DNA from: Mobula hypostoma
Taxonomy: Eukaryota
DNA: 64,000 nucleotides
NCBI RefSeq assembly: GCF_963921235.1
Contig: NC_086097.1
Coordinates: 150,042,001-150,106,000, forward strand
Direction: 5' to 3'
The notes under the pieces are model-generated. The model was given only the letters and a program-made list of their open reading frames with translations. It was not told the DNA's origin and did no database searches. The position numbers were made by a program, and so were the translations under genes. Shown in pieces: positions 217 to 53,297 of the stretch; the first letter of the stretch is position 1; each line of letters opens with the position of its first letter.

Positions 217-1228
217 GATGATATGAAGATAGACAGAGGGGGCAAGTAGTGTTGAGGAAGCAGAGAATCTGCAGAAGGACTTAGGTAGTTTAGGACAATG
301 GACAAAGAAGTGGTAGATGGAACATAGTGCAGGGAAGTGTAAGGTCATGTGCTTTAGCAGAAGGAATATAGGCATAGCACACACATGAAGGATCTCGGCC
401 CAAAACGTCGACTGTACCTCTTCCAATAGATGCTGCCTGGCCTGCTGCGTTCACCAGCAACTTTTATGTGTGTTGCTTGAAATTCCAGCATCTGCAGATT
501 TCCTCGTGTTTGCGTTTGAATATAGGCATAGACTATTTCTAAATGGGGAGAAAATTCAAAATCAGAGGTGCAAAAGGACTTGTGAGTCCTTGTGCAGGAT
601 TTCCTGAAAGATAGCATGCAGGTTGAGTCGGTGGTAAGGAAGGCAAATGAATTTCAAGAAGACTAGAATATAAGAGCAAGGTTGTAATGCTGAGGCTTTA
701 TAGGATATCAGTCAGACAGCACTCTCTGAGGCCCCTTTTCTGAGGAAAAAAATGTGCTGCTATTGGAGAGTGTCCAGAGGAGGTTCATGAGAATAGTACC
801 AGGAATGAAAGGTTAACGTATAAGGAGAGCTTGATAGCTCTAGGCTTGTACCCGCTGAAGTTTAGAAGAATGAGTGGGGATCTCATTAAAACCTATCGAA
901 TATTGAAAGGCCTAGACAGAGTTTTTGTTTCGTATACTGGGTGAATCTAGAACTAGAGGGTACAGCTTCAGAATAGAGAGATGTCCATTTAGAACAAGAT
1001 GAGGAGGAATTTCTTTAGCCAGAAGGCACTGAATCTGTGGAATTCATTGCCGTATTTAGCTATGGAGGCCAAGTCATTGGTATACTTAAAGCAAAGTTCT
1101 TGATTAGTCAAGGGATCAAAGATTACAGAGAGAAGCAAGAGAATGGGTTTGAAAAAGATAATAACTGATGTAATGGTAGAGCAGACTCAATGGGCCAAAA
1201 TGCCTAATTCTGCTCCTATGTCTTACGG
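217..1228 (+). mobile_element. CR1 LINE 3' fragment, interrupted by a Penelope pLTR piece at 378-517
   Basis: Similar to the 3' part of the CR1 copies at 45356-47100 and 57400-58363; ends in CR1-type 3' UTR gggccaaaatgcctaattctgctcctatgtct. Confidence 0.85.
378..517 (+). mobile_element. Penelope-like pLTR mini-insertion with degenerate hammerhead motif
   Basis: 14-bp TSD GAATATAGGCATAG at 364-377 and 518-531; body near-identical to 9945-10077. Confidence 0.85.
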
Positions 1229-1274
1229 GTTTTTGTTAAAAGCTCAATTCCTGCCACACTGGACACTGACCAAT

Positions 1275-2130
1275 ATGCTTGTCAACAGAACTGTTCTATG
1301 ACAGATGTCATAGCCATAGCTTCTGTTGTGCACCTGGCCCTGACACACTTAGAGACGAGGACACTAACGTCAAAATGCCGTTTCTGGATTTCAGTTTGGC
1401 ATTCAGCACTATTGCCGCAGACTTTATTGAACAAATTTCCGCTCCTCAGTCTAAATGCACCACTGTGCAATTGAACGTTGGACTTTCTAACCAGCAGATC
1501 TCAGACTGGGTAATGAGTACTTCCCTCAGGAAGTGAGACTAATGAATAATCTGCCACTGCTGAGATGTCACTAGGACAGTGAGCTGTTTTCTCTTTACTT
1601 ATCCCAGATGCAGCAGAGAGCATCACCGCATTGTGTGTAAACTGCACTGGCATTAGGAAGGCTTGACAACAGGTAGTTAAGGCTGTCCAATACCTCACCA
1701 GCCTACCCACCATCAAGGACATATACCCAGAAAAATGCCAGACCAAGGCTAGCAACATTGTAAAGGATTCCGCCCCCCCCACCGCACCCTGCTCATGGAC
1801 AGTTTGTCCCACTCCCATCAGGAAGGAGTCTACGTAGCATCCATACCAGGAGCACCAGATTCAAAAACAGTTACTTTCCCTAAGCAGTAAGGTTGATCAA
1901 TGCCTCCACCCACTAACACTCCCAACCACACCCCTCATCACCAATACTTTATCAATTTTTGTCAGTCACATAATATATAGACTCTTCTGTGAGAAGCATC
2001 ACTTTATGAGCATACAATCAATCTATGTAAATATGCTGTCTTATGTGTTTATATTTATTGTGTTTTTATTATTGTGTTCTGCATCTTATTGTTGCTATTT
2101 TGTGCTGCACTGGATCTGGAGAAACATTCA
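1275..2130 (+). mobile_element. Rex1/Babar LINE fragments (RT part and 3' end)
   Basis: ORF 1279-1536 contains VKMPFLDFSLAFSTI; 1750-1900 reads IVKDS..HPAHG..RF.NSYFP, the Rex1 C-terminus. Confidence 0.7.
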
Positions 2131-2139
2131 TTTTGTTCT

Positions 2140-3050
2140 CTACCTCCACACCAGGCACTTATCAGTCCTTGTGTAAAAACATCCCTCTGGCATCTCCTCT
2201 GAACTTTCCTCCAATTTCCCTCTCATTATGCCCTCTGATACTAGTATAACCCTAGATTCGGCTAGCAACTTAATCTAGGGGAAGACAGCCTCCAGTTCGG
2301 CCAAGCTTAAGAAATCTTGCTTGGATGGATGCTGCATGATGTGTTCCCCTGCTACAAATCAGTACCACGAAATAACAAACGGTACACAATATGCATTTAA
2401 ACGATTGAGCTTTATAATTCTTAATTTGACTATATGGTTAGTAAAGAAAATAAAAAAGAGTAAGGGCCCATTCTCATGAAAAAGTCTAATGAGCAACGTT
2501 GGAGCTCACGGTTTTCTAGTCTGTTCATTCTCCATAGATTTTCTCCCTGGGTGTCGACACCCGACCCCATTCCAAGTCCACTCCGTCCTGCAATCTACGA
2601 TTTTCCCAATCTGGCAACTTCTTTCTCCATCTTCCGCTGAACAAAAGACGGCAAAACCTTCTCTCGGGCCCACAAGAAAGAAAAAAACATCTCCCCTCGT
2701 TGGCCAGCGCACATTCCAAAACCCCCGTTATCTCTAGTCATAACCCAAACACTGCGCTACAGAGAAACCATTACATAAGCAGGCAAACCTTTCCCAGCTT
2801 GTTAAACTAGTCATCGCAGCCCTGGGAAAAAAGTGGTGGCTGTCCCGTCTATCAATGCCGCTTATAATGTTATTCATCTCTATCAAGCCACCTGCTCCAG
2901 AGAGAAGAGTCCTAGCATTTTCAACCTTTCCTCATAAGAGGTGTTCTCTAATCCAGGCAGTGTCCTGGTAAATTTCCTCTGCACCCCTTCTATTTTTTCC
3001 TCATCCTTACAATAATGAAGTGACCAGAACCAGGGAATACTCCAAGAGTG
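2140..3050 (-). mobile_element. CR1 3' fragment split by a solo LTR
   Basis: Flanks tgccctctgatactag and tcatcgcagccctgggaaaaaag join into continuous CR1 3' sequence (compare the reverse complement of 18570-18610). Confidence 0.7.
2245..2806. mobile_element. Solo LTR, 562 bp
   Basis: Termini TATAAC...GTTAAA (decayed TGTAAC...GTTACA); 4-bp TSD CTAG at 2241-2244 and 2807-2810; interrupts a CR1. Confidence 0.75.
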
Positions 3051-3054
3051 ACCT

Positions 3055-3293
3055 TTATTTATTTATTTTTAGAGATATAGCGTGGTAACCAGCTCTTCTG
3101 GCCCAATGACTCATTACAACCAAGTGAACAGTTCACCTGGCTACTTGTACATCTTTGGAATGTGGGGTAAACTGGAGCATCCAGAGGAAATGTATAGTCC
3201 TGGGGAGAACATTGAAACTCCGTATGGACGGCTGCGGATTTGAGCCCAGTTCGCTAATGATGTAAAAGCGTTACGCTAACTGCAACACTACTG
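3055..3293 (-). mobile_element. tRNA-derived SINE
   Basis: Minus strand has a tRNA-like head (gtagtgttgcagttagcgtaacgc...ggctcaaatcc) and a (TAAA)n tail; similar to 6788-7025 and 23526-23760. Confidence 0.75.
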
Positions 3294-3934
3294 TCAAACA
3301 ACCAAATGTTCAGGAGTCTATTAGTATTGCGTTTGAGTGAACACAGCTCCGTCATTCTTTTGTTCAACAAATACACTTTGACCTGCACCTTCCAAGTCAT
3401 TTAAAAAATATAAGTATTAGTAGCAGGGAGTGCAAACATCCTTTTACTGAAATTCAGCCAAAGAATATGATATAGAAGCCTTTTTTTCTTCTCTCTTCTA
3501 CATAAGGGTCCTAAATAGAGTGAACTTTAAGTTCTCATCTTTCTGTTAGCAATGACATTATGGGTCATAAGCAGCTAAACTTTTCCATGAACTATCCATT
3601 TTACACATAAAAGATGACTCATACAAAAAATGGAAACATCACAGGTTTACTAGTCATTCATCTGTGATGCAAACATTGGTGACCTTGTTTGCGCAGAGAC
3701 GAACCACCACCATATGTCAAAATAATTTATTGTCTGTGAAGAAATTAGAGATGTTTCTCAGAAGGATCTGAAGAAATTATATTAATGCATGTTCTTTCTT
3801 ATATTTCCCTCCTATTTGTACAATTGAGAAACCCAGTTGAGCTTTCTATAGCACCCTATTGCCTTTTCCCATCCTCCCTCGATTTCAGCATCAATGTGCG
3901 GTTTCAGGGCATGTGTTGTGTTCTGTGTAAATTC

Positions 3935-5800: not shown

Positions 5801-5887
5801 TCAGTAAGAAAATAAATATTATAATAATTTACTTTATTCAGTTCCAAATTGACATATACTAACCATACAAGAATTATCCAGACTTTT

Positions 5888-6549
5888 CATCCAGAAAATC
5901 ATGAGGAATGGGATCCAGGGAATCTTGGCGGCATGGATTTGCAACTGATTTGTCCTCAGAACGCAGCGGTAGTAATACATGGAGCATGATCTGCCAGGTG
6001 TTTGGAGACTAGTGGTGCTCCAGAAGAGTCTGTACTGTGACAGCTGCTCTTTGAGCTTGTTGTGACATGGATGAGGGAGTGGAAGGGGTGGGTTAGTAAG
6101 TTTTCAGATGACCACGAAGGTTGATGGTGTTGTGGATAGAGTAGAAATTTGTCATAGATTGCAACAGGACCTAGACAGGATGCAAAGCTGGGCTGAGAAA
6201 TGGCAGAAGCAGTTCAGTCCAGATAACACACATCAAAGTTGCTGGTGAACACAGCAGGCCAGGCAGCATCTCTAGGAAGAGGTACAGTCGACGTTTCAGG
6301 CTGAGATCCTTCGTCAGTCCAGATAAGTGTGATTTGCTTTGGAAGGTTGAATTTGAAGTAATAGTACAGAGTATTGTGAGCATGATTCTTAGCAGTGTGG
6401 AGGAATAGAGGGATCTTGGGGCCCAGGTCTGTAAATTTGTCAAAGCTGGCGGACAACTTGATAGAGTGGTTAAGAAGGTGTATGGTGTGTTGGCCTTCGT
6501 TAGCTGGGGGATTATGAGATAAGTTTGCAGCTCTATAAAATTCTGGTTA
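5888..6549 (+). mobile_element. Decayed CR1 RT fragment
   Basis: Similar to 17760-18330; contains gggttagtaagttttcagatgacc (WVSKFxDD). Confidence 0.8.
6227..6313 (-). mobile_element. Penelope pLTR mini-insertion with hammerhead core
   Basis: 13-bp TSD TCAGTCCAGATAA at 6214-6226 and 6314-6326; minus strand reads CTGACGAAGGATCTCAGCCTGAAACGTCGAC, with its first bases overlapping the TSD. Confidence 0.85.
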
Positions 6550-6554
6550 TATTC

Positions 6555-6609
6555 GGGGATGTATCTCAGTGCATCTAGGAAATCCCGGGTTCAATCCCTG
6601 CCACTTCCA
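6555..6609 (+). pseudogene. tRNA-Ala-like pseudogene or SINE head with internal deletion
   Basis: GGGGATGTATCTCAGTG...CCCGGGTTCAATCCCTGCCACTTCCA matches the 5' end, B box and 3' end of vertebrate tRNA-Ala; the D/anticodon part is deleted. Confidence 0.6.
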
Positions 6610-6787
6610 CTTGTGTGGTCAAGTACACTGAATATCACATTGGACTTCTGGGGGAAGTCCGACCAGAGTTCCGAACAAAATCAGAGGGTGGAACCTAAAC
6701 CAGAGCCTCGGTGAGCTGGAACATGGCAGATGACAAGTAGAGTTTTCTCCAGTGTCTTCCACATTAACCTACAGCTTCATGCTGCTA

Positions 6788-7025
6788 GGGGCAACACAGT
6801 GGCATGGCAGTTAGCGTGATGCTATTGTGGTGCTTGCCATCTGTAAGGAGATTGTACTTCTCCCCGTAACTGTGTGGGTTCCCTCTGTTTTTCTCCACTT
6901 TCCTGCCGTATTCAAAAGACACAGGGGATGGTAGGTTAATTGGTCACGTGGATGGAATTGGGCAGAGTGGACGCTTGGGCCGGAAGGGCCTGTAGCCATG
7001 GTGTATCTCTAGATAAATAAAATTA
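6788..7025 (+). mobile_element. tRNA-derived SINE
   Basis: A-box-like GTGGCATGGCAGTTAGC, shared SINE body, CR1-like 3' end gggccggaagggcctg, ATAAATAAA tail. Confidence 0.75.
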
Positions 7026-9892: not shown

Positions 9893-10215
9893 CTCCCCCT
9901 CCCCCTCTCAAATCTCTTATATCTCTTCTTTCAGTTAGTCCTGACGAAGGGTCTCAGCCTGAAACGTCGACTGTACCTCTTCCTAGAGATGCTGCCTGAC
10001 CTGCTGCGTTCACCAGCAATTTTTATGTGTGTTGCTTGAAATTCCAGCATCTGCAGATTTCCTCGTGTTTGCGTTTTTAAATTCACTACTGCGAAGCCTC
10101 TTCCGGTGATGCCTACACTGAAGAAGTTTAAATCTGCTCTTCGATGGGAGTTTAGGGAAACCATCTCTCACTGTTCCCCATCTATAATTTCTTCAGCCCT
10201 TCAACTTTTCCATCT
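9893..10215 (+). mobile_element. Penelope-like pLTR plus probable start of the ORF
   Basis: Longest copy of the pLTR family in the window; contains an intact hammerhead motif and continues into ORF MPTLKKFKSALRWEF. Confidence 0.8.
9937..9972 (+). ncRNA. Minimal type I hammerhead ribozyme motif
   Basis: AGTC-CTGACGA-AGG(GTCTCAG)CCT-GAAA-CGTC-GACT: stem I AGTC/GACT, conserved CUGANGA and GAAA boxes, GUC triplet, palindromic ACGT in place of stem III. Confidence 0.75.
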
Positions 10216-12486: not shown

Positions 12487-12511
12487 CAAGTTTGTTGGTC
12501 AGACTCAGCTG

Positions 12512-13137: not shown

Positions 13138-13843
13138 TTCGTAGGGATGATTTAGGGATCAGGTTAGGGACAGGCATGTGGGGAAATTAGAGGTCAGGCC
13201 AGAGCCTAGGTCTCTTCACTATGCTCTGTGTTCGAAGGCCAGTGACATGAGCATTTGATAAAGGACACCTATAGTCAGATATTGGGCTGACAGATTAGCC
13301 ATTTGGAAGGCTGATGGCCCTCCCAAGTTAGTGAGTCACCGGCCAGTTCCAGGATTGGAAATCTGCGGGAGATGGAGGGCTGGTTAATCTATAGATACAC
13401 ATGCCTAGGCCTGTGGGCCTCCAGTATGGAGGTCAAAGTCCCAATGTCTATTAGTCTAAGTCCACTGGAGGCTGGAGACCTGGAGATGCCTGTCCTGGAA
13501 TTACTGGTCGCTCCGTGCATATGTACAGGTGGGAGTAAGGTTAGGGGCTTTGCTGTTGTTCTGCGGTTTTTGATGCTTATATGTACTGTGAACATGGTAG
13601 GTATGCTATATTGACACCGGAATGTGTGGTGATACTTGTGGACTGCCTCCTGCACATCCTTAAGTTATGTTGGTTATTAATGTAAACAGCCCTGACGAAG
13701 GGTCTCGGCCTGAAACGTCGACTGCGCCTCTTCCTATAGATGCTGCCTGGCCTGCTGCGTTCACCAGCAACTTTGATGTGTGTAGCATGTTTCACTGTAT
13801 GTTTCAATGTACGTGTAATAAATAAATGAACATGAACCTGAAT
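13138..13843 (+). mobile_element. Non-autonomous LINE-derived element, same family as 42578-43362
   Basis: Shares both the 5' part (tttagggatcaggttaggga) and the 3' part (tttcactgtatgttt...ataaataaa) with the reverse complement of 42578-43362. Confidence 0.65.
13691..13783 (+). mobile_element. Penelope pLTR mini-insertion with hammerhead core
   Basis: CCTGACGAAGGGTCTCGGCCTGAAACGTCGACTG...TGATGTGTGT inserted into the element above. Confidence 0.85.
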
Positions 13844-17164: not shown

Positions 17165-18883
17165 ACTGGAGGAGATAGCAGAGGTACTTAATGCATACTT
17201 GGCTTCAGTATTCACTGCGGAAAAGGATCTTGGTGATTGTAGGGATGACTTGCAGTGGACTGAAAAGCTTGAGAATGTAGTTATTAAGAAAGAGGATGTG
17301 CTGGAGCTTTTGGAAAGCATCAAGTTGGATAAGTTACCGGGACCAGAGCAGATGTACCCCAGGCTACTATGGGAAGGGAGGGCAGAGATTGTTGAGCCTC
17401 TGGTGATGATCTTTGCATCATCAATGGGGACAGGAGAGGTTCTGGAGGATTGGAGGGTTGCAGATATTGTTCCCTTATTCAAGAAAGGGAGTAGAGATAG
17501 CCCAGGAAATTATAGACCGGTGAGTCTTATTCTGTGGTTGGTAAGTTGATGGAGAAGATCCTGAGAGGCAGGATTTATTAACATTTGGAGAGGCATAATA
17601 TGATTAGGAATAGTCAGCATGGCTTTGTCAAAGGCAGGTCGTGCCTTACGAGCCAGATTGAATTTTTTGAGGATGTGACTAAACACATTGATGAAGGTAG
17701 AGCCATAGATGTAGTGTATATGGATTTCAGCAAGGCATTCGATAAGGTATCCCATGCAAGGCTTATTGAGAAAGTAAGGAGGCATGGGATCCAAGGGGAC
17801 ATTGCTTTGTAGATCCAGAACTGGCTTGCCCACAGAAGGCAAAGAGTGGTTGTAGACAGGTCATATTCTGCATTGAGTTCGGTGACCAGTGGTGTGCCTC
17901 AGGGATCTGTTCTGGGACCCCGAATCTTTGTGATTTTTATAAATGACCTGGATGAGGAAGTGGAAGGATGGGTTAGTAAATTTGCTGATGACACAAAGGT
18001 TGGGGGTGTTGTGGATAGTGTGGAGGATGCAGCAGGACATTGATAGGATGCAAAACTGGGCTGAGAAGTGGCAGATGGAGTTCAACCCAGATAAATGTGA
18101 GGTGGTTCATTTTGGTAGGTGAAATATGATGGCAGAATATAGTATTAATGGTAAGACTCTTGACAGTGTGAAGGATCAGAGAGATCTTGGGGTGCAAGTC
18201 CATAGGACACTCAAAGCTGCTACACAGGTTGACTCTGTGGTTAAGAGGGCATACGGTGCATTGGCCTTCATCAATCGTGGGATTGTGTTTAAGTGCCGAG
18301 AGGTAATGTTGCAGCTGTAAAGAACCCTGGTCAGACCCCACTTGGAGTATTGTGCTCAATTTTGGTCACCCCACTACAGGAAGGATATGGAAACCATAAA
18401 AGGGTGCAGAGGAGATTTACAAGGATGTTGCCTGGATTGGGGAGCATGCCTTATGAGAATAGGCTGAGTGAACTCGGCCTTTTCTCCTTGGAGTGACGGA
18501 GGATGAGAGGTGACCTGATAGATAATGATAATGAGATAATGAGAGGCATTGATCATGTGGATAGTCAGAGGCTTTTTCCCAGGGCTGAAATGGCTAGCAC
18601 AAGAGGGCATAGTTTTAAGGTATTTGGAAGTAGGTACAGAGGAGATATCAGGGGTAAGTTTTTTTACGCAGAGATTAGTGAGTGTGTGGAATGGGCTGCC
18701 AGCGGCAGTGGTGGAGGCGGAAATGATAACGATAGGGTCTTTTAAGAGACTCCTAGATAGGTACATGGAGCTTAGAAAAATAGAGGGCTATGGGTAAACA
18801 GGTAGTTCTAAGGTAAGGACATGTTCAACAGAGCTTTGTGGGCTGAAGGGCCTGTATTGTGCTGTAGATTTTCTATGTTTCTA
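17165..18883 (+). mobile_element. CR1 LINE, 5'-truncated
   Basis: [45 protein letters not shown]; tail TTCTATGTTTCTA; several stops and frameshifts. Confidence 0.95.
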
Positions 18884-29720: not shown

Positions 29721-31190
29721 TTGACTGAGCGTAGACTAATGATGCAGTATTTATTGGTGGTTAAGGAGGCTTTGGGAGATTTGCAGCACTGTTGATTTGG
29801 TGCCAGTATTATGCTGGAAGTGCTTGGCCAAAGGGGTGGGTAATTCTGGAATGGACATGTGGAACATTATCATTTCCCATATTCTTGGATATATCCATCA
29901 CTCTCACCCCTATTGCATAGGAGGGATCACTTCAGCTAAGAAAAAAACTGCGATGGTGAGGATGTTGGAATGAAATCATGATGAATCATACGCTCGGCAT
30001 TTCTGGCTAGATTTGTCCCTATGCTGTTGATTCTCTTTAACTGTGTACATTCATGTGCAACAAAAAAAAGAGAATCTATCTGCTCATGGAACATTTTATA
30101 GAAATACTTTTAAATTTAAAAGGAGACATGTGGTAAAGATAGGCTGAGGAGTAGAGCTCAACAGAAGGAACAAGAAAGGCATGATTCAAAGTGAATCTGA
30201 CTCCCAATTTGGAGTCATGAAGGTGAAATCAGATCTCAGCCTTTATTCTCTGAAAAGGGAAAAATGCCAGAAATTTACAATTGGGTGGCTTAGGTAAAAA
30301 TAGTGGTTGAGGGGGAATGGAGGCTAATTGGGGCCACAGTCCCCCATCATTTTCTAAATCGTGCCTGAGTGAATATGCATACTAATATAAAATTATGTTG
30401 GCTGATGGTAGAGATTTAGGGCAGGTCAGAGGGTCTAATGGCAGGTGAAACAGAGCCGAAGACTCAGCATCATTCTTTGGGGGAAAGTTAGAAAGCAAAT
30501 GGCATAAATTAAGTAAGTCTTATTCATGACTTAGCTATAATCTCCAGTCAATACATGTATTACCTTGTTGGTATTCATGAAAAAATAAGGCAGAGTTTCA
30601 GAGTCAAAGACTGGAGAGTGAACCTGGATCTATGAGAAGAACAGAGGCTTGTAAGAAGCTGATCAGCTAAGGTGATAATAATTGTCGTTTTTTGTGTCTT
30701 AAGAACAGTTTTTAATGGGTTTCACACAGGAGAATGAACAAGATCAAAGCACACAGATAGTCTGCTGTCATAGGGTGAGAACTAGCTATTCAATAAAAAC
30801 AAAGAGGTTCAGTTACTCAATCAAAACTGTGACTGAAATTCTTCCGGATTGCAGAAAAACAGTACTGAGTTAGAAGGTCAAATGTGGTCTCAATGAACAT
30901 TGAAGCAGACCTGAAAGTCCAAATAGCCTGTGCCTGCTCCTGTTTCTTAGGTAGGGAGTGGAGACTGGTTGCATCAATTTTCTTTTACATTTCTTAACTG
31001 ATTGCTGCTTTAGCCTGAAAGACATCTAACTAAGGTATGCGCTTGCCACTAAGAAGCAAAGATACTGATAAGATATAGGGTGGCACAGTTATGTAGAAAC
31101 ATAGAAACATAGAAAATAGGTGCAGGAGTAGGCCATTCGGCCCTTCGAGACTGCACCGCCATTTATTATGATCATGGCTGATCATCCAAC

Positions 31191-34100
31191 TCAGAACGCT
31201 GTTCCAGCCTTCCCTCCATACCCCCTGATCCCCGTAGCCACAAGGGCCATATCTAACTCCCTCTTAAATATAGCCAATGAACTGGCCTCAACTGTTTCCT
31301 GTGGCAGAGAATTCCACAGATTCACCACTGTCTGTGTGAAGAAGTTTTTCCTAATCTCGGTCCTAAAAGGCTTCCCCTTTATCCTCAAACTGTGACCCCT
31401 CGTTCTGAACTTCCCCAACATCAGGAACAATCTTCCTGCATCTAGCCTGTCCAATCCCTTTAGGATTTTATACGTTTCAATCAGATCCCCCGTCAATCTT
31501 CTAAATTCCAATGAGTACAAGCCCAGTTCATCCAGTCTTTCTTCATATGAAAGTCCTGCCATCCCAGGAATCAATCTGGTGAACCTTCTTTGTACTCCCT
31601 CTATGGCAAGGATGTCTTTCCTCAGATTAGGGGACCAAAACTGCACACAATACTCCAGGTGTGGTCTCACCAAGGCCTTGTACAACTGCAGTAGTACCTC
31701 CCTGCTCCTGTACTCGAAACCTCTTGCTATGAATGCCAGCATACCATTCATCTTTTTCACCGCCTGCTGTACCTGCATGCCCACTTTCAATGACTGGTGT
31801 ATAATGACACCCAGGTCTCATTGCACCTCCCCTTTTCCTAATCGGCCACCATTCAGATAATAATCTGTTTTCCTATTTTTGCCACCAAAGTGGATAACTT
31901 CACATTTATCCACATTAAATTGCATCTGCCATGAACTTGCCCACTCACCCAACCTATCCAAGTCACTCTGCATCCTCTTAGCATCCTCCTCACAGCTAAC
32001 ACTGTCGCCCAGCTTCGTGTCATCCGCAAACTTGGAGATGCTGCATTTAATTCCCTCATCCAAGTCATTAATATATATTGTAAACAACTGGGGTCCCAGC
32101 ACTGAGCCTTGCGGTAGCCCACTAGTCACCGCCTGCCATTCTGAAAAGGTCCCGTTTATTCCCACTCTTTGCTTCCTGTCTGCTAACCAATTCTCTATCC
32201 ACATCAATACCGTACCCCCAATACCGTGTGCTTTAAGTTTGCACACTAATCTCCTGTGTGGGACCTTGTCAAAAGCCTTTTGAAAATCCATATATACCAC
32301 ATCCACTGGTTCTCCCCTATCCACTCTACTATTTACATCCTCAAAAAATTCTATGAGATTCGTCAGACATGATTTTCCTTTCACAAATCCATGCTGACTT
32401 TGTCCGATGATTTCACCGCTTTCCAAATGTGCTGTTATCACATCTTTGATAACTGACTCCAGCAGTTTCCCCACCACTGACGTTAGGCTAACCGGTCTAT
32501 AATTCCCCGGTTTCTCTCTCCCTCCTTTTTTTAAAAAGTGGGGTTACATTAGCCACCCTCCAATCCTCAGGAACTAGTCCAGAATCTAACGAGGTTTGAA
32601 AAATTATCACTAATGCATCCACTATTTCTTGGGCTACTTCCTTAAGCACTCTGGGATGCAGACCATCTGGCCCTGGGGATTTATCTGCCTTTAATCCCTT
32701 CAATTTACCTAACACCACTTCCCTACTAACATGTATTTCGCTCAGTTCCTCCATCTCACTGGACCCTCTGTCCCCTACTATTTCTGGAAGATTATTTATG
32801 TCCTCCTTAGTGAAGACAGAACCAAAGTAATTATTCAATTGGTCTGCCATGTCCTTGCTCCCCATAATCAATTCACCTGTTTCTGTCTGTAGGGGACCTA
32901 CATTTGTCTTTACCAGTCTTTTCCTTTTTACATATCTATAAAAGCTTTCACAGTCCGTTTTTATGTTCCCTGCCAGTTTTCTCTCATAATCTTTTTTCCC
33001 CTTCCTAATTAAGCCCTTTGTCCTCCTCTGCTGAACTCTGAATTTCTCCCAGTCCTCAGGTGAGCCACTTTTTCTGGCTAATTTGTATGCTTCTTCTTTG
33101 GAATTGATACTATCCCTAATTTCTCTTGTCAGCCACGGGTGCACTACCTTCCTTGATTTATTCTTTTGCCAAACTGGGATGAACAATTGTTGTAGTTCAT
33201 CCATGCAATCTTTAAATGATTGCCACTGCATATCCACCATCAATCCTTTAAGTGTCATTTGCCAGTCAATCTCAGCTAATTCACGTCTCATGCCTTCAAA
33301 GTTACCCCTCTTTAAGTTCAGAACCTTTGTTTCTGAATTAACTATGTCACTCTCCATCTTAATGAAGAATTCCACCATATTATGGTCACTCTTACCCAAG
33401 GGGCCTCTCACGACAAGATTGCTAATTAACCCTTCCTCATTGCTCAAAACCCAGTCTAGAATAGCCTGCTCTCTAGTTGGTTCCTCGACACGTTGGTTCA
33501 AAAAACCATCCCGCATACATTCCAAGAAATCCTCTTCCTCAGCACCTTTACCAATTTGGTTCACCCAGTCTACATGTAGATTGAAGTCACCCATTATAAC
33601 TGCTGTTCCTTTATTGCACACATTTCTAATTTCCTGTTTAATACCATCTCTGACCTCACTACTACTGTTAGGTGGCCTGTACACAACTCCCACCAGCGTC
33701 TTCTGCCCCTTAGTGTTACGCAGCTCTACCCATATCGATTCCACATCTTCCCGGCTTATGTCCTTCCTTTCTATTGCGTTAATCTCTTCTTTAACCAGCA
33801 ACGCCACCCCACCTCCCCTTCCTTCATGTCTATCCCTCCTGAATATTGAATATCCCTGAACGTTGAGCTCCCATCCCTGGTCACCCTGGAGCCATGTCTC
33901 TGTGATCCCAACTATATCATAATCATTAATAACAATCTGCACTTTCAATTCATCCACCTTGTTACGAATGCTCCTTTCATTGACACACAAAGCCTTCAGG
34001 TGCTCTTTTACAACTCTCTTAGCCCTTATACAATTATGTTGAAAAGTGGCCCTTTTTGATGCTTGCCCTGGATTTGTTGGCCTGCCACTTTTACTTTTCT

Positions 34101-35352: not shown

Positions 35353-35387
35353 TAACTAGCTAACCAAATAAGTAATTAAAATGTCTG

Positions 35388-35459
35388 CAACATACATCAA
35401 AGTTGCTGGTGAACGCAGCAGGCCAAGCAGCATCTATAGGAAGAGGCGCAGTCGACGTT
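35388..35459 (-). mobile_element. Penelope pLTR mini-insertion truncated inside the hammerhead
   Basis: 9-bp TSD AAATGTCTG at 35379-35387 and 35460-35468. Confidence 0.85.
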
Positions 35460-35599
35460 AAATGTCTGGTAGTTTGTAAGGAGCCGAGGAAAATGAGTCA
35501 GAGGGCAAGTGTACTGTGCGGTCTGCACAGCTGGACAGTTACGGTACTCTGGATCATGAAGGGTAAAGAAGGGAGGTGAAAGAGGATTGAGTACGGGAG

Positions 35600-37632: not shown

Positions 37633-38666
37633 TGTTACGTACCCCGTAACTGGGTTGCCAAACCAGCAGAAATGGATCACTCAGTTGGAGTCTGGAGTAC
37701 TAGAACTAAGAAAGTTTTATTAAAGAAACAAGCAACACAGTAATCGAAAGGATAATAAATGCAACAGTTCAGTGATGATAAACACACATGTGCACAGAAT
37801 TAAGATAACAGCATCAATCAAGCTCTATCGTTGTCTAGGGGTAAATGACCAATTTCAAAATGACTCAAAGTTCAGTCCAGTTTAGTAGTTCAGTTCGCAG
37901 TAATCGTTGCCATGGCGATGGACAACGTGGGGGAAGAGAGAGATAGAACAGGAACAACTGATCATTCAGAACACTGCTTCACTCACAGACCAGCGGGATG
38001 GCTCACAAACAGCTTTTGGGCGGGTCCTTGGTGATGTCACCTGAGGTCACCGACTGTGACCCCTCCTCCAGATGCGGTCGATCCTCTGCAGTGAACCCGG
38101 CACCCAGGCAAGGGCGGACACACACCGGGTTCCCGCTGATCGTACCTTTCCACCCTTGTCGTTGTCTGGGACTTCTCACCCACTCGTGAGAAGCGCACCG
38201 CTTCCAGGGTCTCGTTACCTCGGGTGGCGTGTGTGTCTGTCTTAGCGAACCTGTCCCTTTTTATCCCCCTGCTGGGGTATCGCCTGTCCATCACTTCAAA
38301 CAGTTCAGGGCTCAAAGGGGGGAGCCGCTCCAGACAGCTCTTCCTCCCACATCCCTTCATTACACATCTCCAGACGCTGCTCCATTGTTCCTTATCTCTC
38401 CTTCCCCTGAGGGCAGGTGGCAGACCAACTGCTGATGCCACTGATGCTAGCCCAGGCCAGCAAACATCTTAATTTTATGTGTATTCTCGTAACACTTCCC
38501 CCCTTTAAGGATTTTTACCGGGAGGTAAAAATTACAAACATGACTACATTATCTGATACATACACAATATACATCTTTAACAGTTATTTAGCTAATACAG
38601 AGAATTTGAAGCTGTCAACACCTTGACAGACAGTCATCACATTTTCTGTTCCTTTTACACGTGTTA

Positions 38667-41709: not shown

Positions 41710-42577
41710 CTTATGTTACGTACCCCGTAACTGGGTTGCCAAACCAGCAGAAATGGATCACTCAGTTGGAGTCTGGAGTACTAGAACTAAGAAAGTTTTA
41801 TTAAAGAAACAAGCAACACAGTAATCGAAAGGATAATAAATGCAACAGTTCAGTGATGATAAACACACATGTGCACAGAATTAAGATAACAGCATCAATC
41901 AAGCTCTATCGTTGTCTAGGGGTAAATGACCAATTTCAAAATGACTCAAAGTTCAGTCCAGTTTAGTAGTTCAGTTCGCAGTAATCGTTGTCATGGCGGT
42001 GGACAATGTGGGGGAAGAGAGAGATAGAATAGGAACAACTCATCATTCAGAACGGCTTCACTCACAGACCAGCAAGATGGCTCACAAACAGCTTTTGGGC
42101 GGGTCCTTGGTGATGTCACCTGAGGTCACCGACTGTGACCCCTCCTCCAGATGCGGTCGATCCTCTGCAGTGAACCCGGCACCCAGGCAAGGGCGGACAC
42201 ACACCGGGTTCCCGCTGATCGTACCTTTCCACCCTTGTCGTTGTCTGGGACTTCTCACCCACTCGTGAGAGGCGCACCGCTTCCAGGGTCTCGTTACCTC
42301 GGGTGGCGTGTGTGTCTGTCTTAGCGAACCTGTCCCTTTTTATCCCCCTGCTGGGGTATCGCCTGTCCATCACTTCAAACAGTTCAGGGCTCAAAGGGGG
42401 GAGCCGCTCCAGACAGCTCTTCCTCCCACATCCCTTCATTACACATCTCCAGACGCTGCTCCATTGTTCCTTATCTCTCCTTCCCCTGAGGGCAGGTGGC
42501 AGACCAACTGCTGATGCCACTGATGCTAGCCCAGGCCAGCAAACATCTTAATTTTATGTGTATTCTCGTAACACTAT

Positions 42578-43362: not shown

Positions 43363-43507
43363 GAACGGATCAATACTCAGTGATGCGCAGTTTAAAAGGT
43401 GGTCATTAATGGCCTCTAGGTAAGTGTGGGTTTCTATCCAGCTCAGTGGTGGAATGATACGTCCAAAGTCCACATTCCTGTGTATTGTTCCCTTTTTTAT
43501 TTTGGAA

Positions 43508-45355: not shown

Positions 45356-48262
45356 ACCATAAGACAAAGGAACAGAGGTCGTCCATTCAGCCCATTGAGT
45401 CTGCTCCGCCATTTTATCATGAGCTGATCCATTCTCCCATTTAGTCCCACTCCCCCGCCTTCTCACCATAACCTTTGATGCCCTGGCTACTCAGATACCT
45501 ATCAATCTCTGCCTTAAATACAACCAGTGACTTGGCCTCCACTGCTGCCCATGGCAACAAATTCCATAGATTCACCACCCTCTGACTAAAAAAATTTCTT
45601 TGCATTTCTGTTCTGAATGGGTGCCCTTCAATCATTAAGTCATGCCCTCTTGTACTAGACTCCCCCATCATGGGAAACAACTTTGCCACATCCACTCTGT
45701 CCATGCTTTTCAACATTCGAAATGTTTCTATGAAGTCTCCCCTCATTCTTCTAAACTCCAAGGAATACAGTCCAAGAGCGGACAAACGTCCCTCATATGT
45801 TAACCCTCTCATTCCCAGAATCATTCTAGTGAATCTTCTCTGTACCCTCTCTCACATCAGCACATCCTTTCTTAAATAAGGAGACCAAAACTGCCCACAG
45901 TACTCCAAGTGAGGTCTCACCAGCGCCTTATAGAGCCTCAACATCACATCCCTGCTCCTATACTCTATTCCTCTAGAAATGAATGCCAACATTGCATTCG
46001 CCTTCTTCACTACCGACTCAACCTGGAGGTTAACCTTAAGGGTATCCTGTACGAGGACTCCCAAGTCCCGTTGCATCTCAGAACTTTGAATTCTTTCCCC
46101 ATTTAAGTAATAGTCAGCCCGTTTATTTCTTTTGCCAAAGTGCATAACCATACACTTTCCAACATTGTATTTCATTTGCCACTTCTTTGCCCATTCTTCC
46201 AATCTATCCAAGTCTCTCTGCAGACTCTCCGTTTCCTCAGCACTACCGGCCCCTCCACCTATCTTCATATCGTCTGCAAACTTAGACACAAAGCCATCTA
46301 TTCCATAATCCAAATAGTTGATGTACAATGTAAAAAGAAGCGGCCCCAACACGGACCCCTGTGGAACACCACTGGTAACCGGCAGCCAACCAGAATAGGA
46401 TCCCTTTATTCCCAGTCTCTGTTTCCTGCCAATCAGCCAACGCACTATCCACGTATGTAACTTTCCCGTAATTCCATGGGCTTTTATCTTGTTAAGTAGC
46501 CTCATGTGTGGCGCCTTGTCAAAGGCCTTCTGAAAATCCAAATATACAACATCCACTGCATCTCCCTTGTCTAGCCTACTGGTAATTTCCTCAAAAAATT
46601 GTAATAGGTTTGTCAGGCAGGATTTTCCTTTAAGGAATCCATGCTGAGTTCTGCCTATCTTGTCATATGCCTCCAGGTACTCTGTAACCTCATCCTTGAC
46701 AATTGACTCTAACAACTTCCCAACCACCGATGTCAAGCTAACAGGTCTATAATTTCCTTTTTGCTTCCTTGCCCCCTTCTTAAATAGCGGAGTGTCATTT
46801 GCAATCTTCCAGTCCTCCGGAACTATGCCAAAATCTATCGACTTCTGAAAGATCATCGCTAATGCCTTCGCAATCTCCACAGCTACTTCCTTCAGAACAC
46901 GCGGGTGCATTCCATCTGGTCTGGGAGATTTATCTACCTTTAGCCTATTCAGCTTCCTGAGTACTTTCTCTGTCGTAATTGTGACTGCGCACACTTCTCT
47001 TCCCTGCCACCCTTGAGTGTCCGGTATCCTGCTGTCTTCCTCAGTGAAGACTGATGCAAAATACTCGTTCAGTTCCTCTGCCATCTCCTTATCTCCCATT
47101 ACAATTTCTCCAGCATCATTTTCTATCGTTCTTTTCTATCGTTCCACCTGTCCTTTACTCTTTATATACTTGAAAAAGCATTTCGTATCCTCTTTGATAT
47201 TATTTGCTAGCTTCCTTTCATAGTTAATCTTTTCCCTCTTAATGACCTTCTTAGTTTCCTTTTGTAAGGTTTTAAAAACTTCCCAATCCTCTGTCTTCCC
47301 ACTAATTTTTGTTTCCTTGTATGCCCTCTCCTTTGCTTTAACTTTGGCTTTTACTTCTCTTGTCAACCACGGTTGCATCCTTTTTCCATTCGAAAATGTC
47401 TTCTTTTTTGGAATATACCTGTCTTGCACCTTCCTCACTTCCGCATAAACTTCAGCTACTGCTGCTCTGCCGTCTTTCTCGCCAGTGTCCCTTTCCAGTC
47501 AACTTTGGCCAGTCCCTCTATCATGCCACTGCAATTTCCTTTACTCCACTGAAATACTGACACATCAGATTTCGGCTTCTCTTTTTCTAATTTCACAGTG
47601 AACTCAATCATGTTATGATCACTGCCTCCGAAGGGTTCCTTCACCTCAATCTCTCCAATCACCTCCGGTTCATTACACAATACCCAATCCAGTACAGCCG
47701 ATCCCCTAGTGGGCTCAACAACAAGCTGTTCTAAAAAGCCATCTCGCAGACATTCTACAAATTCTCTCTCTTGAGATCCAGTGCTGACCTGATTTTTCTA
47801 ATCTACTCGCATGTTAAAATTTCCCACAATTATCATAACACTGCCCTTCTGACAAGCCTTTTCTATTTCCAGTTGTAATTTGTAGTCCACATCACTGCAG
47901 CTGTTTGGAGGCCTATAAATAACTGCCATCAGGGTCCTTTTACCCCTGCGATTTCTTAGCTCAACCCATAAAGATTCTGCACCTTCCGATCCTATATCAC
48001 CTCTTTCTAATGATTTAATATCATTACTTACCAATAAAGCCACGCCTCCCCCTCTGCCTACCTTCCTGTCCTTCCGATACACCGTGTATCCTTGGACGTT
48101 CAGCTCCCAGAGACATGCATCCTTTAGCCAGGTCTCAGTGATGGCCACAATATCATACCTGCCAATCTGTAACTGTACGACAAGATCGTCCACCTTATTT
48201 CTTATGCTGCGTGCATTTAAGTATAACACCTTAAGACCAGTATTTGGTACTTTTTGCTTTGA
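45356..48262 (-). mobile_element. CR1 LINE ORF2 (endonuclease and RT) with 3' UTR
   Basis: LYLNARSIRNK, AITETW, 415-aa RT ORF with KFADD. Confidence 0.96.
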
Positions 48263-48309
48263 TTTATACCTGATCCCACTCCCCAGTCAGCAGCGCCTTC
48301 TCAGCGCCT

Positions 48310-50413
48310 TTTTGCAGGGAAATGTACTATGGACATGTGGTCGATGTTTAGGGATCTCTTGCGGGATGTAAGGGATAAATTTGTCCCAGTGAGGAAGATA
48401 AAGAATGGTAGGGTGAAGGAACCATGGGTGACAAGTGAGGTGGAAAATCTAGTCAGGAGGAAGAAGGCAGCATACATGAGGTTTAGGAAGCAAGGATCAG
48501 ATGGGTCTATTGAGAAATATAAGGAAGCAAGAAAGGAGCTTAAGAAGGGGCTGAGAAGAGTAAGAAGGGGGCATGAAAAGGCCTTGGTGAGTAGGGTAAA
48601 AGAAAACCCCAAGGCATTCTTCAATTATGTGAAGAAAAAAAGGATGACAGGAGTGAAGGTAGGACCGATTGGAGATAAAGGTGGGAAGATGTGCCTGGAG
48701 GCTGTGGAAATAGCGAGGTCCTCAATGAATACTTCTCTTCAGTATTCACCAATGAGAGGGAACTTGGTGATGGTGAGGACAATATGAGTGAGGTTGATGT
48801 TCTGGAGCATGCTGATATTAAGGGAGAGGAGGTGTTGGAGTTATTAAAATACATTAGGGCAGATAAGTCCCCGGGGCCTGACGGAATATTCCCCAGGCTG
48901 CTCCACGAGGTGAGAGAAGAGATTGCTGAGCCTCTGGCTAGGATCTTCATGTCCTCGTTGTTCACGGGAATGGTACCGGAGGATTGGAGGGAGGCGAATA
49001 TTGTTCCCTTGTTCAAAAAAGGTAGTAGGGATAGTCCGGGTAATTATAGACCAGTGAGCCTTACGTCTGTGGTGGGAAAACTGTTGGAAAAGATTCTTAG
49101 AGATAGGATCTATAGGCATTTAGAGAATCATGGTCTGATCAGGGACAGTCAGCATGGCTTTGTGAAGGGCAGATCATGTCTAGCAAGCCTGATAGAGTTC
49201 TTTGAGGAGGTGACCAGGCATATAGATGAGAGTAGTGCAGTGGATGTGATCTATATGGATTTTAGTAAGGCATTTGACAAGGTTCCACATGGTAGGCTTA
49301 TTCAGAAAGTTAGAAGGCATGGGATCCATGGAAGTTTGGCCAGGTGGATTCAGAATTGGCTTGCCTGCAGAAGGCAGAGGGTGGTGGTGGAGGGACTACA
49401 TTCAGATTGGAGGATTGTGACTAGTGGTGTCCCACAAGGATCTGTTCTGGGACCTCTACTTTTTGTGATTTTTATTAACGACCTGGATGTTGGGGTAGAA
49501 GGGTGGGTTGGCAAGTTTGCAGACGACACAAAGGTTGGTGGTGTTGTAGATAGTGTAGAGGATTGTCAAAGATTGCAGAGAGACATTGACAGGATGTAGA
49601 AGTGGGCTGAGAAGTGGCAGATGGAGTTCAACCTGGAGAAGTGTGAGGTGGTACACTTTGGAAGGACAAACTCCAAGGCAGAGTACAAAGTAAATGGCAG
49701 GATACTTGGTTGTGTGGAGGAGCAGAGGGATCTTGGGGTACATGTCCACAGATCGCTGAAAGTTGCCTCACAGGTGGATAGGGTAGTTAAGAAAGCTTAT
49801 GGGGTGTTAGCTTTCATAAGTCGAGGGATAGAGTTTAAGAGTTGCGATGTAATGATGCAGCTCTATAAAACTCTGGTTAGGCCACACTTGGAGTATTGTG
49901 TCCAGTTCTGGTCACCTCACTATAGGAAGGATGTGGAAGCATTGGAAAGGGTACAGAGGAGATTTACCAGGATGCTGCCTGGTTTAGAAAGTATGCTTTA
50001 TGATCAGAGATTAAGGGAGCTAGGGCTTTACTCTTTGGAGAGAAGGAGGATGAGAGGAGACATGATAGAGGTGTACAAGATAATAAGAGGAATAGATAGA
50101 GTGGATAGCCAGCACCTCTTCCCCAGGGCACCACTGCTTAATACAAGAGGACATGGCTTTAAGGTAAGGGGTGGGAAGTTCAAGGGGGATATTAGAGGAA
50201 GGTTTTTTACTCAGAGAGTGGTTGGTGTGTGGAATGCACTGCCTGAGTCAGTGGTGGAGGCAGATACACTGGTGAAGTTTAAGAGACTATTAGACGGGTA
50301 TATGGAGGAACCTAAGGTGGGGGCTTATATGGGAGGCAGGGTTTGAGGGTCGGCACAACATTGTGGGCCAAAGGGCCTGTACTGTGCTGTACTGTTCTAT
50401 GTTCTATGTTCTA
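48310..50413 (+). mobile_element. CR1 LINE, 5'-truncated, different subfamily from its neighbour
   Basis: RT ORFs 48691-49599 and 49621-50346; (TTCTATG)n tail. Confidence 0.96.
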
Positions 50414-50674
50414 AAAGAACTAAATAATTCTGTAGAAAACTTTCTACGCCATGTTTAAAACCAAATTGAAAATTACGCTCTCTTCCTTTGCCGGACATCG
50501 AGGCTTATCTCCTTAAATGTTTGAACTGTTTTCCCTGTTAATCTTTAGTCCAGTTCACCTTAGCCAACTCCATATTCACTCCATTGTAATTCATTTCACT
50601 TGTTAAAGCTAGTTGTTTCTGTTCCAATTTTTTCTGTCTCAAATGGAATACAAACTTGTATCAAATTATCAATA

Positions 50675-50772
50675 TTTTCTTTCCTCCTGTAGACGTTGCT
50701 TGACCTGCTGAGATCTCCCAGCAGATGGTTTGTTGCTCCAGATTCCAGTGTCTTCAGTCTCCTGTGTTTTCT
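50675..50772 (+). mobile_element. Diverged Penelope pLTR-like fragment without hammerhead
   Basis: gacgttgcttgacctgctgag..ccagca..gttgctccagattccag resembles 9985-10070. Confidence 0.5.
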
Positions 50773-51175
50773 ATCAAACCATGATAATTTTTTTCTAGGG
50801 AGACATTGAATGTCGTGATTAAACTTGTCTAGTTGTCCATTACTTTTTCCAAGATAGACTTCATCTGGTTAGCTCCCATCCTGAAACCTATCACTTTATC
50901 ACTGTAATGTTATAAGCTTTTCCTTTCAACAAATATTGTCCTTAATTTTATTAGTTAACAAAGATGCATCCACTTTCCACAGAAATAACAATGGAAATTA
51001 TGAAATATTTCTTTAAATGACGTGTAGGTTTTGTTGAACTACATTCCAGAAAGACTTGTTGCCCTGAAAAGTTATTGTACAGATATTTTACAAGCTACCA
51101 ACTGAGATTTAGCTATTATATTCTTGATGCACTATACTCTGTTAGTTGAGATTGCTATTGGAGATCTGGTCAAGA

Positions 51176-52529
51176 ATATCTTTTCTAATGTTGATAGTCA
51201 TTGTGATAGAAGTAAAACTGAGATAGCTACACTGACGCATATGTTTTGGTCGTGTTCTATATTGGAACAGTTCTGGAAGTCAGTTTTTTCAACAATTTCT
51301 AAAGCACTTAAAATTAATCTACAACCTAATAAATTAACTGTGCTTCTTGGAATAATTCCTCAAAATTAGGTTAATCCTTTGAACCTTTATTTGATTTTGA
51401 GAAAAGATGGGGCTCATTTGCTCATTATTATCATTTGAGCTAATTGATAGATTTTTCCACGATCTAATTGTAAATTTTTTAGTATATTTTCTTTTCTAGC
51501 TGGTGGTTTGATGTTTATTTTTAGAAGCTTTTTATATGATGCATGACTTCAGGGTTGTACACCTAATGGGTTCTTTTTTTTCCTCACTTTTTCTGCTTAG
51601 TAGGTTTTTTTTGTTATCACTGTTACGTACCCCGTAACTGGGTTGCCAAACCAGCAGAAATGGATCACTCAGTTGGAGTCTGGAGTACTAGAACTAAGAA
51701 AGTTTTATTAAAGAAACAAGCAATACAGTAATCGAAAGGATAATAAATGCAACAGTTCAGCGATGATAAACACACATGTGCACAGAATTAAGATAACAGC
51801 ATCAATCAAGCTCTATCGTTGTCTAGGGGTAAATGACCAAATTTCAAAGTGACTCAAAATTCAGTCCAGTTTAGTAGTTCAGTTCGCAGTAATCATTGCC
51901 ATGGCGATGGACAACGTGGGGGAAGAGAGAGAGGGAACAGGAACAACTGATCATTCAGAACGGCTTCACTCACAGACCGGTGATATTGCTCACAAGCAGC
52001 TTTTGGGCGGGTCCTTGGTGATGTCACCTGAGGTCACCGACTGTGACCCCTCCTCCAGATGCGGTCGATCCTCTGCAGTGAACCCGGCACCCAGGCAAGG
52101 GCGGACACACACCGGGTTCCCGCTTCTCATTACCTCGGGTGTCGTGTGTCTTGCCTTAGCGAACCGGTCCCTTTTTATCCCCCTGCTGGGGTATCGCCTG
52201 TCCATCACTTCAAACAGTTCAAGGTTCAAAGGGGGGAGCCGCTCCAGACAGCTCTCTCTCCCCCGCCCCTTCATTACACATCTCCAGACGCTGCTCCATT
52301 GTTCCTTATCTCTCCTTCCCCTGAGGGCAGGTGGCAGACCACTTGCTGATGTCACTGATGCTAACCCAGGCCAGCAAACATCTTAATTTTATGTGTATTC
52401 TCGTCACATCACAAATTTCTTTTTTCAATCTTTAAGATAGTCTTTTTTGACACATTGTAAGTGTTGTTAGTTCAATGTACTCATGTTATTTTTTTGTATA
52501 ATATAACAATAAAAGGATTTGAAAAGAAA
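51176..52529 (+). mobile_element. L1-clade LINE 3' fragment hosting a solo LTR
   Basis: C-terminal zinc knuckle remnant CDRSK..THMFWSC..FW; T-rich 3' UTR, AATAAA; 16-bp TSD GGAGATCTGGTCAAGA at 51160-51175 and 52530-52545. Confidence 0.88.
51621..52408 (-). mobile_element. Solo LTR of the Gmr1-like family at 37633-42573
   Basis: TGTTACG...CGTCACA; 4-bp TSD TCAC at 51617-51620 and 52409-52412; about 70 bp shorter than the paired LTRs. Confidence 0.95.
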
Positions 52530-53077
52530 GGAGATCTGGTCAAGAGGTAAACTTCAGTCACAGTCAAATTGGCTGAAGTTTCAGCATAAATGATTATAGC
52601 TGAACTTCAGCACTGACATGTACAAAGTAAATATTACAATTCTGGTTTGTTATTCACTGGCAAGTTAAGTGTTCTGACTGTTGGTGAATCAAAACTTATA
52701 CACGTACACGAAGACTGAACATTTGAACTTGGGGCAATCAGTTCCTATAGGACTGCACTATAATGAGTCCATGCCTTTAGGCAAGGAAGGAGAAAATTGC
52801 TAACATAATTGAACTGTGAACCTGTTGAATTCTGAACCGTTTGCAATGATTAGCAGAAGTATCTTTGGCCCTCAGTCAAATCTCTTTCCATTCTGTTTTT
52901 GTCAGGTAAATTATTGTGTTTGCTTATTTTTCAACAAGTAGGCTAACTATCGTCACATCCAGTTTATTCCCTCTTAAACAGCACTGATAGCAAAATAAAC
53001 TTCCAAATCTGCTCACGCAGCAAAAAGTGGTAAAACCTAAATAAGTGCTGTAGAAAACTGTTCCTTGTTAACTCATG

Positions 53078-53259
53078 CAACACACATCAAAGTTGCTGGT
53101 GAACGCAGCAGGCCAGGCAGCATCTCTAGGGAGAGGTACAGTCGACGTTTCGGGCCGAGACCCTTCGTCAGGACTAACTGAAGGAAGAGCTAGTAAGAGA
53201 TTTGAAAGTGGGGGGTGGGGGGGAGATCCAAAATGATAGGAGAAGACAGGAGGGGTTTA
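53078..53259 (-). mobile_element. Penelope pLTR mini-insertion with intact hammerhead motif
   Basis: 15-bp TSD CCTTGTTAACTCATG at 53063-53077 and 53260-53274. Confidence 0.9.
53140..53175 (-). ncRNA. Minimal type I hammerhead ribozyme motif
   Basis: Minus strand AGTC-CTGACGAA-GGGT(CTCG)GCCC-GAAA-CGTC-GACT. Confidence 0.75.
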
Positions 53260-53297
53260 CCTTGTTAACTCATGTTCAATATGAGTCTTAAATTAAA

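Follow-up and report, generated by a model that had tools for sequence, protein, structure and literature searches.

A 64,000-nucleotide stretch of the Mobula hypostoma genome, referred to here at its full length as the window (assembly GCF_963921235.1, contig NC_086097.1, positions 150,042,001 to 150,106,000 of the forward strand), contains six short insertions built around a minimal "hammerhead" ribozyme, and the question that it raises is what determines where such insertions begin and end. An earlier note on this DNA had assigned them to the pseudo-long terminal repeat (pLTR) of a Penelope-like element, and had proposed that they represent an abundant mobile unit of their own, resembling a short interspersed nuclear element (SINE) or a retrozyme, whose 5' end is set by the structure of the ribozyme. 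The six copies are in fact the 5'-truncated tail ends of an autonomous 3.5-kb Penelope-like element with a reverse transcriptase (RT), a Zn linker and a GIY-YIG endonuclease. The ends of several hundred copies make it probable that synthesis starts at one of two fixed 3' points, that a protein dimer primes from both cut target strands on one RNA, and that copying frequently terminates at the front edge of the ribozyme, either through the end of the template or through a block.

In the element coordinates used here, +1 is the first base 3' of the predicted hammerhead cut, and positions upstream of the cut are negative; "arm" denotes a single uninterrupted copy, and an "insertion" consists of one or two arms. 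The 3' ends of the 251 insertions described below fall at two sites 37 bases apart, "site A" at about +66 and "site B" at about +103. All six window copies are recovered, at 89-95% identity to the copy at 9893. Insertion 1 (364..531, plus strand) holds element positions -23..+108 at 387-517, ends at site B with the tail, carries 9 extra bases after the 5' target-site duplication (TSD) and is bounded by an exact 14-bp TSD (364-377 and 518-531). Insertion 2 (6214..6326, minus strand) holds -28..+65, ending at site A (alignment 6225-6317), with a 4-base overlap at its 5' junction and an exact 13-bp TSD (6214-6226 and 6314-6326). Insertion 3 (9893..10210, plus strand) spans -77..+242, and insertion 4 (13688..13789, plus strand) extends from -32 to about +67 (alignment to +70), at site A; the TSD search gave none for the latter. 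Insertion 5 (35379..35468, minus strand) holds -6..+67 at 35387-35459, again ending at site A, between exact 9-bp TSDs starting at 35379 and 35460. Insertion 6 (53063..53274, minus strand) extends from -113 to about +66 at site A (alignment 53070-53255, to +74), with 4 extra bases and an exact 15-bp TSD (53063-53077 and 53260-53274). The TSD search succeeded in 1 of 150 shuffled flank pairings. The earlier note's description of the copies is thus accurate: four have clean TSDs of 9-15 bp, four end at a common 3' point (+65..+67), four have their 5' ends inside the hammerhead (-23, -28, -32 and -6), and none begins at the predicted cut. The hammerhead is complete in insertion 3 (9936..9973, plus strand; core from 9941, predicted cut after 9968). 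As read from the sequence, it consists of CUGANGA, an extra A, a 4-bp stem II, GAAAC-GUC without loop III and a 5-bp stem I, which agrees with the minimal type I architecture described in the accessible text of PMC4209133; Rfam yields no match to it at E<=1.

The parent element is identified by following the best genome matches of a window copy, which run on into long common sequence. Among the 16 long loci that match the 9893 copy best, 15 contain two direct pLTRs 3.25-3.73 kb apart, and one locus, L037, has a 998-codon open frame with an inverted pLTR copy on its 5' side. Across the long loci, YIDD occurs in 7 of 10 motif matches and a CX4CX2C linker in 8 of 9, and there are 15 matches to a GIY-YIG-type motif. 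Pfam and PDB searches of the 998-aa frame returned nothing at threshold; the Pfam family RVT_1 appeared weakly and below its cut-off in two of four proteins (E=8e-4 and 3e-3), and among Atlas clusters the nearest, scoring 0.97, contain HTH_animal, DUF8422 and GIY-YIG or RVT_1. The element therefore has the features of endonuclease-bearing (EN+) Penelope-like elements, namely an RT combined with a C-terminal GIY-YIG within one open reading frame (ORF), direct pLTRs with a minimal hammerhead, and a tail, an inverted 5' copy and a TSD, and the origin of the window copies in a Penelope pLTR is borne out. A CX2-5CxxC linker between RT and EN is given for the Neptune clade, and also for Nematis, in the accessible parts of PMC8557442; the present element is an endonuclease-bearing Penelope-like element with a Neptune-type linker, and a literature search returned nothing on Neptune elements in sharks. 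Only 509 pattern matches continue into the ORF, compared to 86,635 pLTR matches. An apparent boundary at query position 33 in the genome search was rejected as a true element end, since it is merely the start of the window copy.

Three exact 23-mer variants of the sequence occur 90,862, 8,397 and 12,213 times in 3.48 Gb, which gives 111,472 arms as a lower bound, or at least one arm per 31 kb. The contiguous 144 kb surrounding the window contains 9 young insertions, so the figure of one copy per 10 kb in the earlier note holds as a locally dense value and does not extend to the genome as a whole. The sample for junction analysis was drawn from stretches at motif matches in genome order together with 184 kb of unselected sequence (1.68 Mb in total), leaving out loci picked for similarity to the long window copy; it yielded 253 clusters with a young arm (at least 88% identity, covering +33..+55), of which 2 local duplicates were removed to leave 251 insertions.

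These insertions follow a near-strict pairing rule. They comprise 119 with one arm (65 ending at A, 53 at B and 1 elsewhere), 115 with two arms placed head-to-head and 17 that are complex. Both outer ends lie at A or B in 99 of the two-armed insertions, the other 16 being omitted from the count because an arm ends elsewhere or is cut by a stretch boundary; 98 of the 99 are A+B, one is A+A and none is B+B. A TSD is present in 136 of the 207 insertions examined, and 78 of the 98 A+B insertions have one of at least 9 bp, mostly 13-15 bp. The arms of a pair are also coupled in length: their 5' ends are correlated (rho 0.57), and pairs of one short and one long arm number 13 of 98 versus 45 expected. 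The further-reaching arm is A in 54 pairs and B in 31, with 13 equal (p=0.017), and diagnostic variants are concordant between paired arms in 446 of 499 comparisons versus 0.56 for shuffled pairs. These counts all fit two RNA-templated strands, one for each cut target end and mostly from one source, and from them we infer a single RNA with a leading A subunit. Since the 3' end shared by the window copies is site A of the autonomous element, it gives no sign of a separate unit.

The mechanism which may underlie this pattern would begin with a staggered cut in the target by the endonuclease, which would produce the TSDs. Each target 3' end would then prime minus-strand synthesis, one at A and the other at B, with the protein acting as a dimer that primes from both cut DNA strands on a single RNA. 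Joining of the two cDNAs by their 3' ends would yield a palindromic head-to-head insertion, while survival of only one cDNA would leave a one-armed stub of the kind seen in the window. The closest biochemical parallel is the Poseidon element of Anolis carolinensis (PAc; Frangieh et al. 2024, PMC11167929). In the accessible text of that study, the protein, a predicted dimer, cuts and extends both strands in vitro, two internal RT start sites bound the 30-40-bp tail as they do here, and cleavage by the pLTR hammerhead is dispensable for insertion. That text reports no difference in start site between the strands and does not pair the sites for each insertion; the present element further differs from PAc in having its start sites upstream of the probable ATG (at about +140) and in its Neptune-type linker.

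The second regularity concerns the 5' ends. Of 321 arms, 89 end within -22..-36, a span of 15 bases at the front edge of the ribozyme, which is a 16-fold excess over background. The number of stops per 100 nt at risk is 0.27 at +33..+2, 0.24 at +1..-8 and 0.58 at -9..-21, rises to 2.59 at -22..-36, and declines through 1.07 (-37..-46) and 0.55 (-47..-60) to a background of 0.157 beyond -61, where the rate is flat at 0.12-0.20. Ends peak beyond stem II, once stem II has been copied. There is no corresponding pile-up at the cut site, where 7 ends fall at +1..-8 versus 4.6 expected (p=0.18); two arms end at +1, one at +2 and one at +4. Genome-wide, 86,635 pattern matches reach -20 and 48,016 reach -65, a calibrated survival of 0.61 where the background rate predicts about 0.92. 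Neither the number of arms in an insertion nor the site, A or B, at which an arm has its 3' end alters the pile-up, and the effect therefore depends on position and not on length. Among arms that reach -22, only 3 of 65 with a long partner stop by -46, compared to 60 of 79 with a short partner, which makes the stop a property of the template or of the whole complex and makes independent stalling at the fold unlikely. Copies that continue into the ORF get past the zone more often (352 of 509, or 0.69 raw, versus 0.55), and within one subfamily 31 of 41 pass (hand count, two contigs) versus 9,848 of 19,196, or 0.51 (p=0.001). The expectation in the earlier note that 5' ends would be non-random near the hammerhead, and not scattered uniformly, is therefore upheld, while its suggestion that RT stalls on the ribozyme fold copy by copy is not supported as it stands, given the position of the peak beyond stem II, the dependence on the partner arm and the passage of ORF-continuing copies.

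The explanation of the pile-up that we favour, and to which we give about an even chance, is that the RNA has its 5' end near -36, so that priming in the first pLTR leads to run-off after 100-140 bases; long copies would then derive from tandem, read-through or circular templates. The sequence TCAGT, which overlaps the CAG at -35 and has its A at -36, we take to be Inr-like (resembling an initiator). Several observations weigh against this reading. An extra G of the cap type is not enriched, since G precedes 4 of the 23 one-armed copies ending at -38..-30, and RNA starts are not observable in the data used, which were contigs of 6 guessed-RNA runs. None of the joints listed for these contigs (15 of 615 and 15 of 35) falls at the predicted intron or circle, a result that is uninformative either way. 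ORF-continuing copies lose 24-31% (raw) between -20 and -65 versus about 8% expected, so some position effect remains on a second pass, and the pile-up has an upstream shoulder (-37..-60) where a template end should give a sharp wall. The count at exactly -34 is too high on account of a near-palindrome at -34..-21. The proposal of a single RNA for both arms is strained by the 17 of 55 short pairs in which the B arm passes the A arm, since displacement or trimming is then needed if both share one RNA. Paired arms differ at site +18 in 12 of 77 pairs versus a background of 3%, which may reflect two templates in some pairs, and gene conversion between arms could be another source of the raised concordance. 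Finally, the sample is motif-anchored, comes mostly from one contig's first 38 Mb and contains about twice the due share of two-armed insertions, and BLAST ends are uncertain by a few bases.

The closest rival to run-off retains the twin-primed element and attributes the pile-up to a long RNA on which the complex as a whole is blocked, so that the leading RT stalls and both arms end; the block might consist of an element protein on the ribozyme, splicing factors on the acceptor at -35, a lariat branch near -47 or an alternative hairpin at -47..-17. We regard it as possible, although doubtful. It likewise predicts coupled arms, and no cap G is seen; the hairpin, with a folding energy of -10.2 kcal/mol, extends across the zone of raised stop rate, the -35 acceptor is used exactly at two loci, 4 arms in 3 insertions end at exactly -46, and protein-assisted ribozyme activity is reported in the accessible text of PMC11167929. 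The 66-nt region nevertheless folds no better than shuffles (z 0.16), and neither the easier passage of ORF-continuing copies of the same subfamily nor the short pairs in which the trailing B arm is the longer one is what a block predicts. A more distant alternative dispenses with twin priming, and forms the head-to-head arms by fold-back or self-priming of one cDNA, or on an antisense template, as is proposed for rotifer Penelopes in the accessible text of PMC3846280. The arms do share variants, several junctions lie on local palindromes, and equal 5' ends occur in 13 of 98 pairs versus 4 expected. In 54 of the 98 pairs, however, neither arm contains the other, A being longer at the 5' side and B at the 3' side, and a fold-back copy of one minus-strand cDNA therefore fails for these pairs; the scheme is unlikely to account for the family.

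A SINE is a unit with a Pol III promoter or a tRNA/5S/7SL-derived head; an Rfam scan of the window, in which A/B boxes were not among the things searched, gave 0 matches at E<=1. A free-standing unit of 100-140 bases, similar to a SINE or a retrozyme, derived from source copies of its own and mobilised in trans, would find some encouragement in the rare tandem arrays that carry a ribozyme in every unit, in a haplotype enriched in short copies (27 of 107 versus 12 of 136; p about 0.02 at two sites), and in one solo stub that was copied again, along with 300 bases of host flank, into a new insertion with its own TSD 2.8 Mb from the original. This insertion (L119, G000:C1:2960770-2961420, from the source L052 at G000:C1:170476) has a 14-bp TSD and continues into a second B arm and an A arm, and the recopied stub with its flank has exactly 2 matches genome-wide. 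It is, however, a single remobilised stub among 251 insertions, and the window copies are single and not tandem. Common flank capture, for which distant TSDs would be a sign, was rejected: these occurred in 4 of 51 cases, two of them matching element sequence. Haplotypes are shared between short and long copies, none being private to the short ones and only two of nine sites showing a modest shift, so the short copies have no separate source lineage; their 5' ends occupy a range of 15 bases or more and no two junctions are alike, so that an own source lineage with a fixed 5' end, as expected of a SINE, is not what is found. The independent unit of the earlier note is therefore largely refuted, its 3' end being the RT start and tail of the autonomous element, and we consider it very improbable. 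Still less credible is the supposition that ribozyme cleavage sets the 5' end, or that truncation is simply random. Four arms do end at +1, +2 or +4, and the flat stop rate upstream of -61 is as random truncation predicts; the lack of an excess at the cut, the 16-fold excess at -22..-36 and the calibrated genome-wide survival of 0.61 oppose both, and for the pile-up zone of this family the 5'-end counts refute them, in keeping with the note's own view that cleavage alone does not explain the ends.

Locus L277 (974-2239; G000:C2) contains 4.1 units of 310 bp with a site A end and a TSD, and its units meet at a junction which joins +278 to -34 exactly, without overlap or insertion. The same junction occurs between other flanks at locus L280 (1277-1742; G000:C50), which has about 1.5 units and a site B end, and a genome-wide pattern search found it only at these two loci (6 matches in total). 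The hammerhead is intact inside the unit, and the tandem copies for which the earlier note had suggested a search thus exist as rare loci (L277-L280) with a type I hammerhead in each unit, even though the six window copies are single. The sequences at the junction resemble splice signals. The element at +279 begins RTATCCTTT, with the GT form present in the same subfamily (the donor for the +278|-34 junction is GTATCCTTT, at L238:1804), and the bases through -35 end in CAG; in insertion 3 a branch-like sequence, a pyrimidine tract and this CAG occupy 9917..9934 (plus strand), at the front edge of the pile-up. RTATCCYT is the U12-type donor consensus (PMC2846911, also the source for the acceptor and branch consensus), while the -35 acceptor is U2-type in look. 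In the unit of L037, RTATCCYT occurs at -159 and +279, two sense-strand sites where 0.47 are expected, with 0 on the antisense strand and the first base variable between A and G; RTATCCY covers 0.06% and GT 3.7% of unit positions.

It is somewhat more probable than an even chance, as far as these signals in the DNA go, that rolling copying of a 310-base back-spliced circle (donor +279, acceptor -35) lies behind the tandem arrays. The splice reading is weakened because -34 lies within the pile-up anyway, because the signals were present in only one of the three arrays first examined, and because L280 may be a daughter of L277. The linear junction -160|-34 predicted from the upstream donor has 0 genomic copies by genome-wide pattern search, which leaves a different donor possible, and in the 23 one-armed copies with ends at -38..-30 the match to an upstream exon piece never exceeded 8 of 12 bases. 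Recurrence of the junction was considered as proof of splicing and rejected, since a junction free of such signals, +292|-155, also recurs at 3 loci. These loci (L279, L019 and L006) have a unit of about 440 bp and are a candidate internally deleted, non-autonomous derivative. At L278 (944-1652) there is a 285-bp tandem with a junction at about +218|-66 and a site A end. A tentative scheme that would combine all of these elements is that of an asymmetric dimer with RT subunits at A and B of one RNA, primed by two target ends, in which the ribozyme front edge serves both as a working 3' splice site and as the template boundary, and the 310-base back-spliced circle is rolled into TSD-flanked arrays; splicing, and not the ribozyme, would then be the route to retrozyme-like repeats. 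A literature search returned no back-spliced Penelope circle and nothing on Penelope-like elements with U12 signals, most subscription journals and supplements being outside its coverage.

Comparison with known systems separates what is ordinary here from what is not. In the accessible text of Craig et al. 2021 (PMC8557442) and Arkhipova et al. 2013 (PMC3846280), EN+ Penelope-like elements show 5' truncation, an inverted 5' copy and a 30-40-bp tail, and the presence of the tail at one end is given qualitatively and ascribed to endonuclease resolution or self-priming; here it becomes a near-strict rule (98 of 99), the lengths of paired arms are coupled, and the 5' ends have a hot spot that does not appear in the available passages of those papers. 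A literature search in which most subscription journals and supplements were outside coverage likewise found no count of A/B pairing and no 5'-end profile for Penelope. For the Penelope element of D. virilis, the accessible parts of Schostak et al. 2008 (PMC2377424) and of Cervera and de la Pena 2014 (PMC4209133) place the 3' end of an intron at the 5' end of hammerhead helix I, as with the -35 acceptor here, and a further resemblance is that genomic copies retain the intron; the start site of that element lies 46 bases before the 75-base intron, whereas here the predicted linear junction is absent from the genome. Animal non-LTR retrozymes, as described in the available portions of PMC7229834 and Li et al. 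2026 (10.64898/2026.07.22.740005), are tandem arrays of pLTR-derived units, 170-400 bases long, that each contain a type I hammerhead, a description which the array at L277 fits (310 bp, 4.1 units). Their circles are there ascribed to ribozyme cleavage and ligation, whereas the unit of L277 and L280 is joined at splice-type signals, and the window copies, unlike tandem retrozymes, are single truncated stubs.

As an element this one belongs to a known class and is ordinary within it; its junction statistics open the mechanism of Penelope-like elements to direct test. How Penelope-like elements form inverted ends and a one-sided tail, and what the hammerhead contributes, has been explained in the papers cited by self-priming, endonuclease resolution or ribozyme-made circles, which were proposed without test; more than 100,000 young arms make the insertion junctions of this genome a record of the reaction. 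The A+B rule predicts sharply what should be seen in the existing in vitro system, and the pile-up shifts attention from the cut site to the front edge of the ribozyme. If the circle is confirmed, the exact GT-AG tandem junction would tie the introns of Penelope and circular RNA to the origin of retrozyme-like arrays.

The window also contains a seventh relative, absent from the earlier note's list: a fragment at 50682..50769 (plus strand), 71% identical, of an older related Penelope family that is also represented at G000:C1:150110801-150111720. This family has the same hammerhead, likewise preceded by a pyrimidine tract and CAG, and its few two-armed copies pair a short with a long 3' end. 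Its 42 matches are few and mixed, most of them belonging to other subfamilies and having ends limited by the alignment; of the closer matches, 0 end at -22..-36 and several end at +5..+19 or -8..-21. Other repeats in the window include a young one of about 860 bp that is present three times, at 93-99% identity (37633-38496, 41714-42575 and 51621-52408), and an older family that has left many long fragments, 65-76% identical, on both strands (17171-18879, 31109-33138, 45362-50403, 55489-58359 and 61159-63060).

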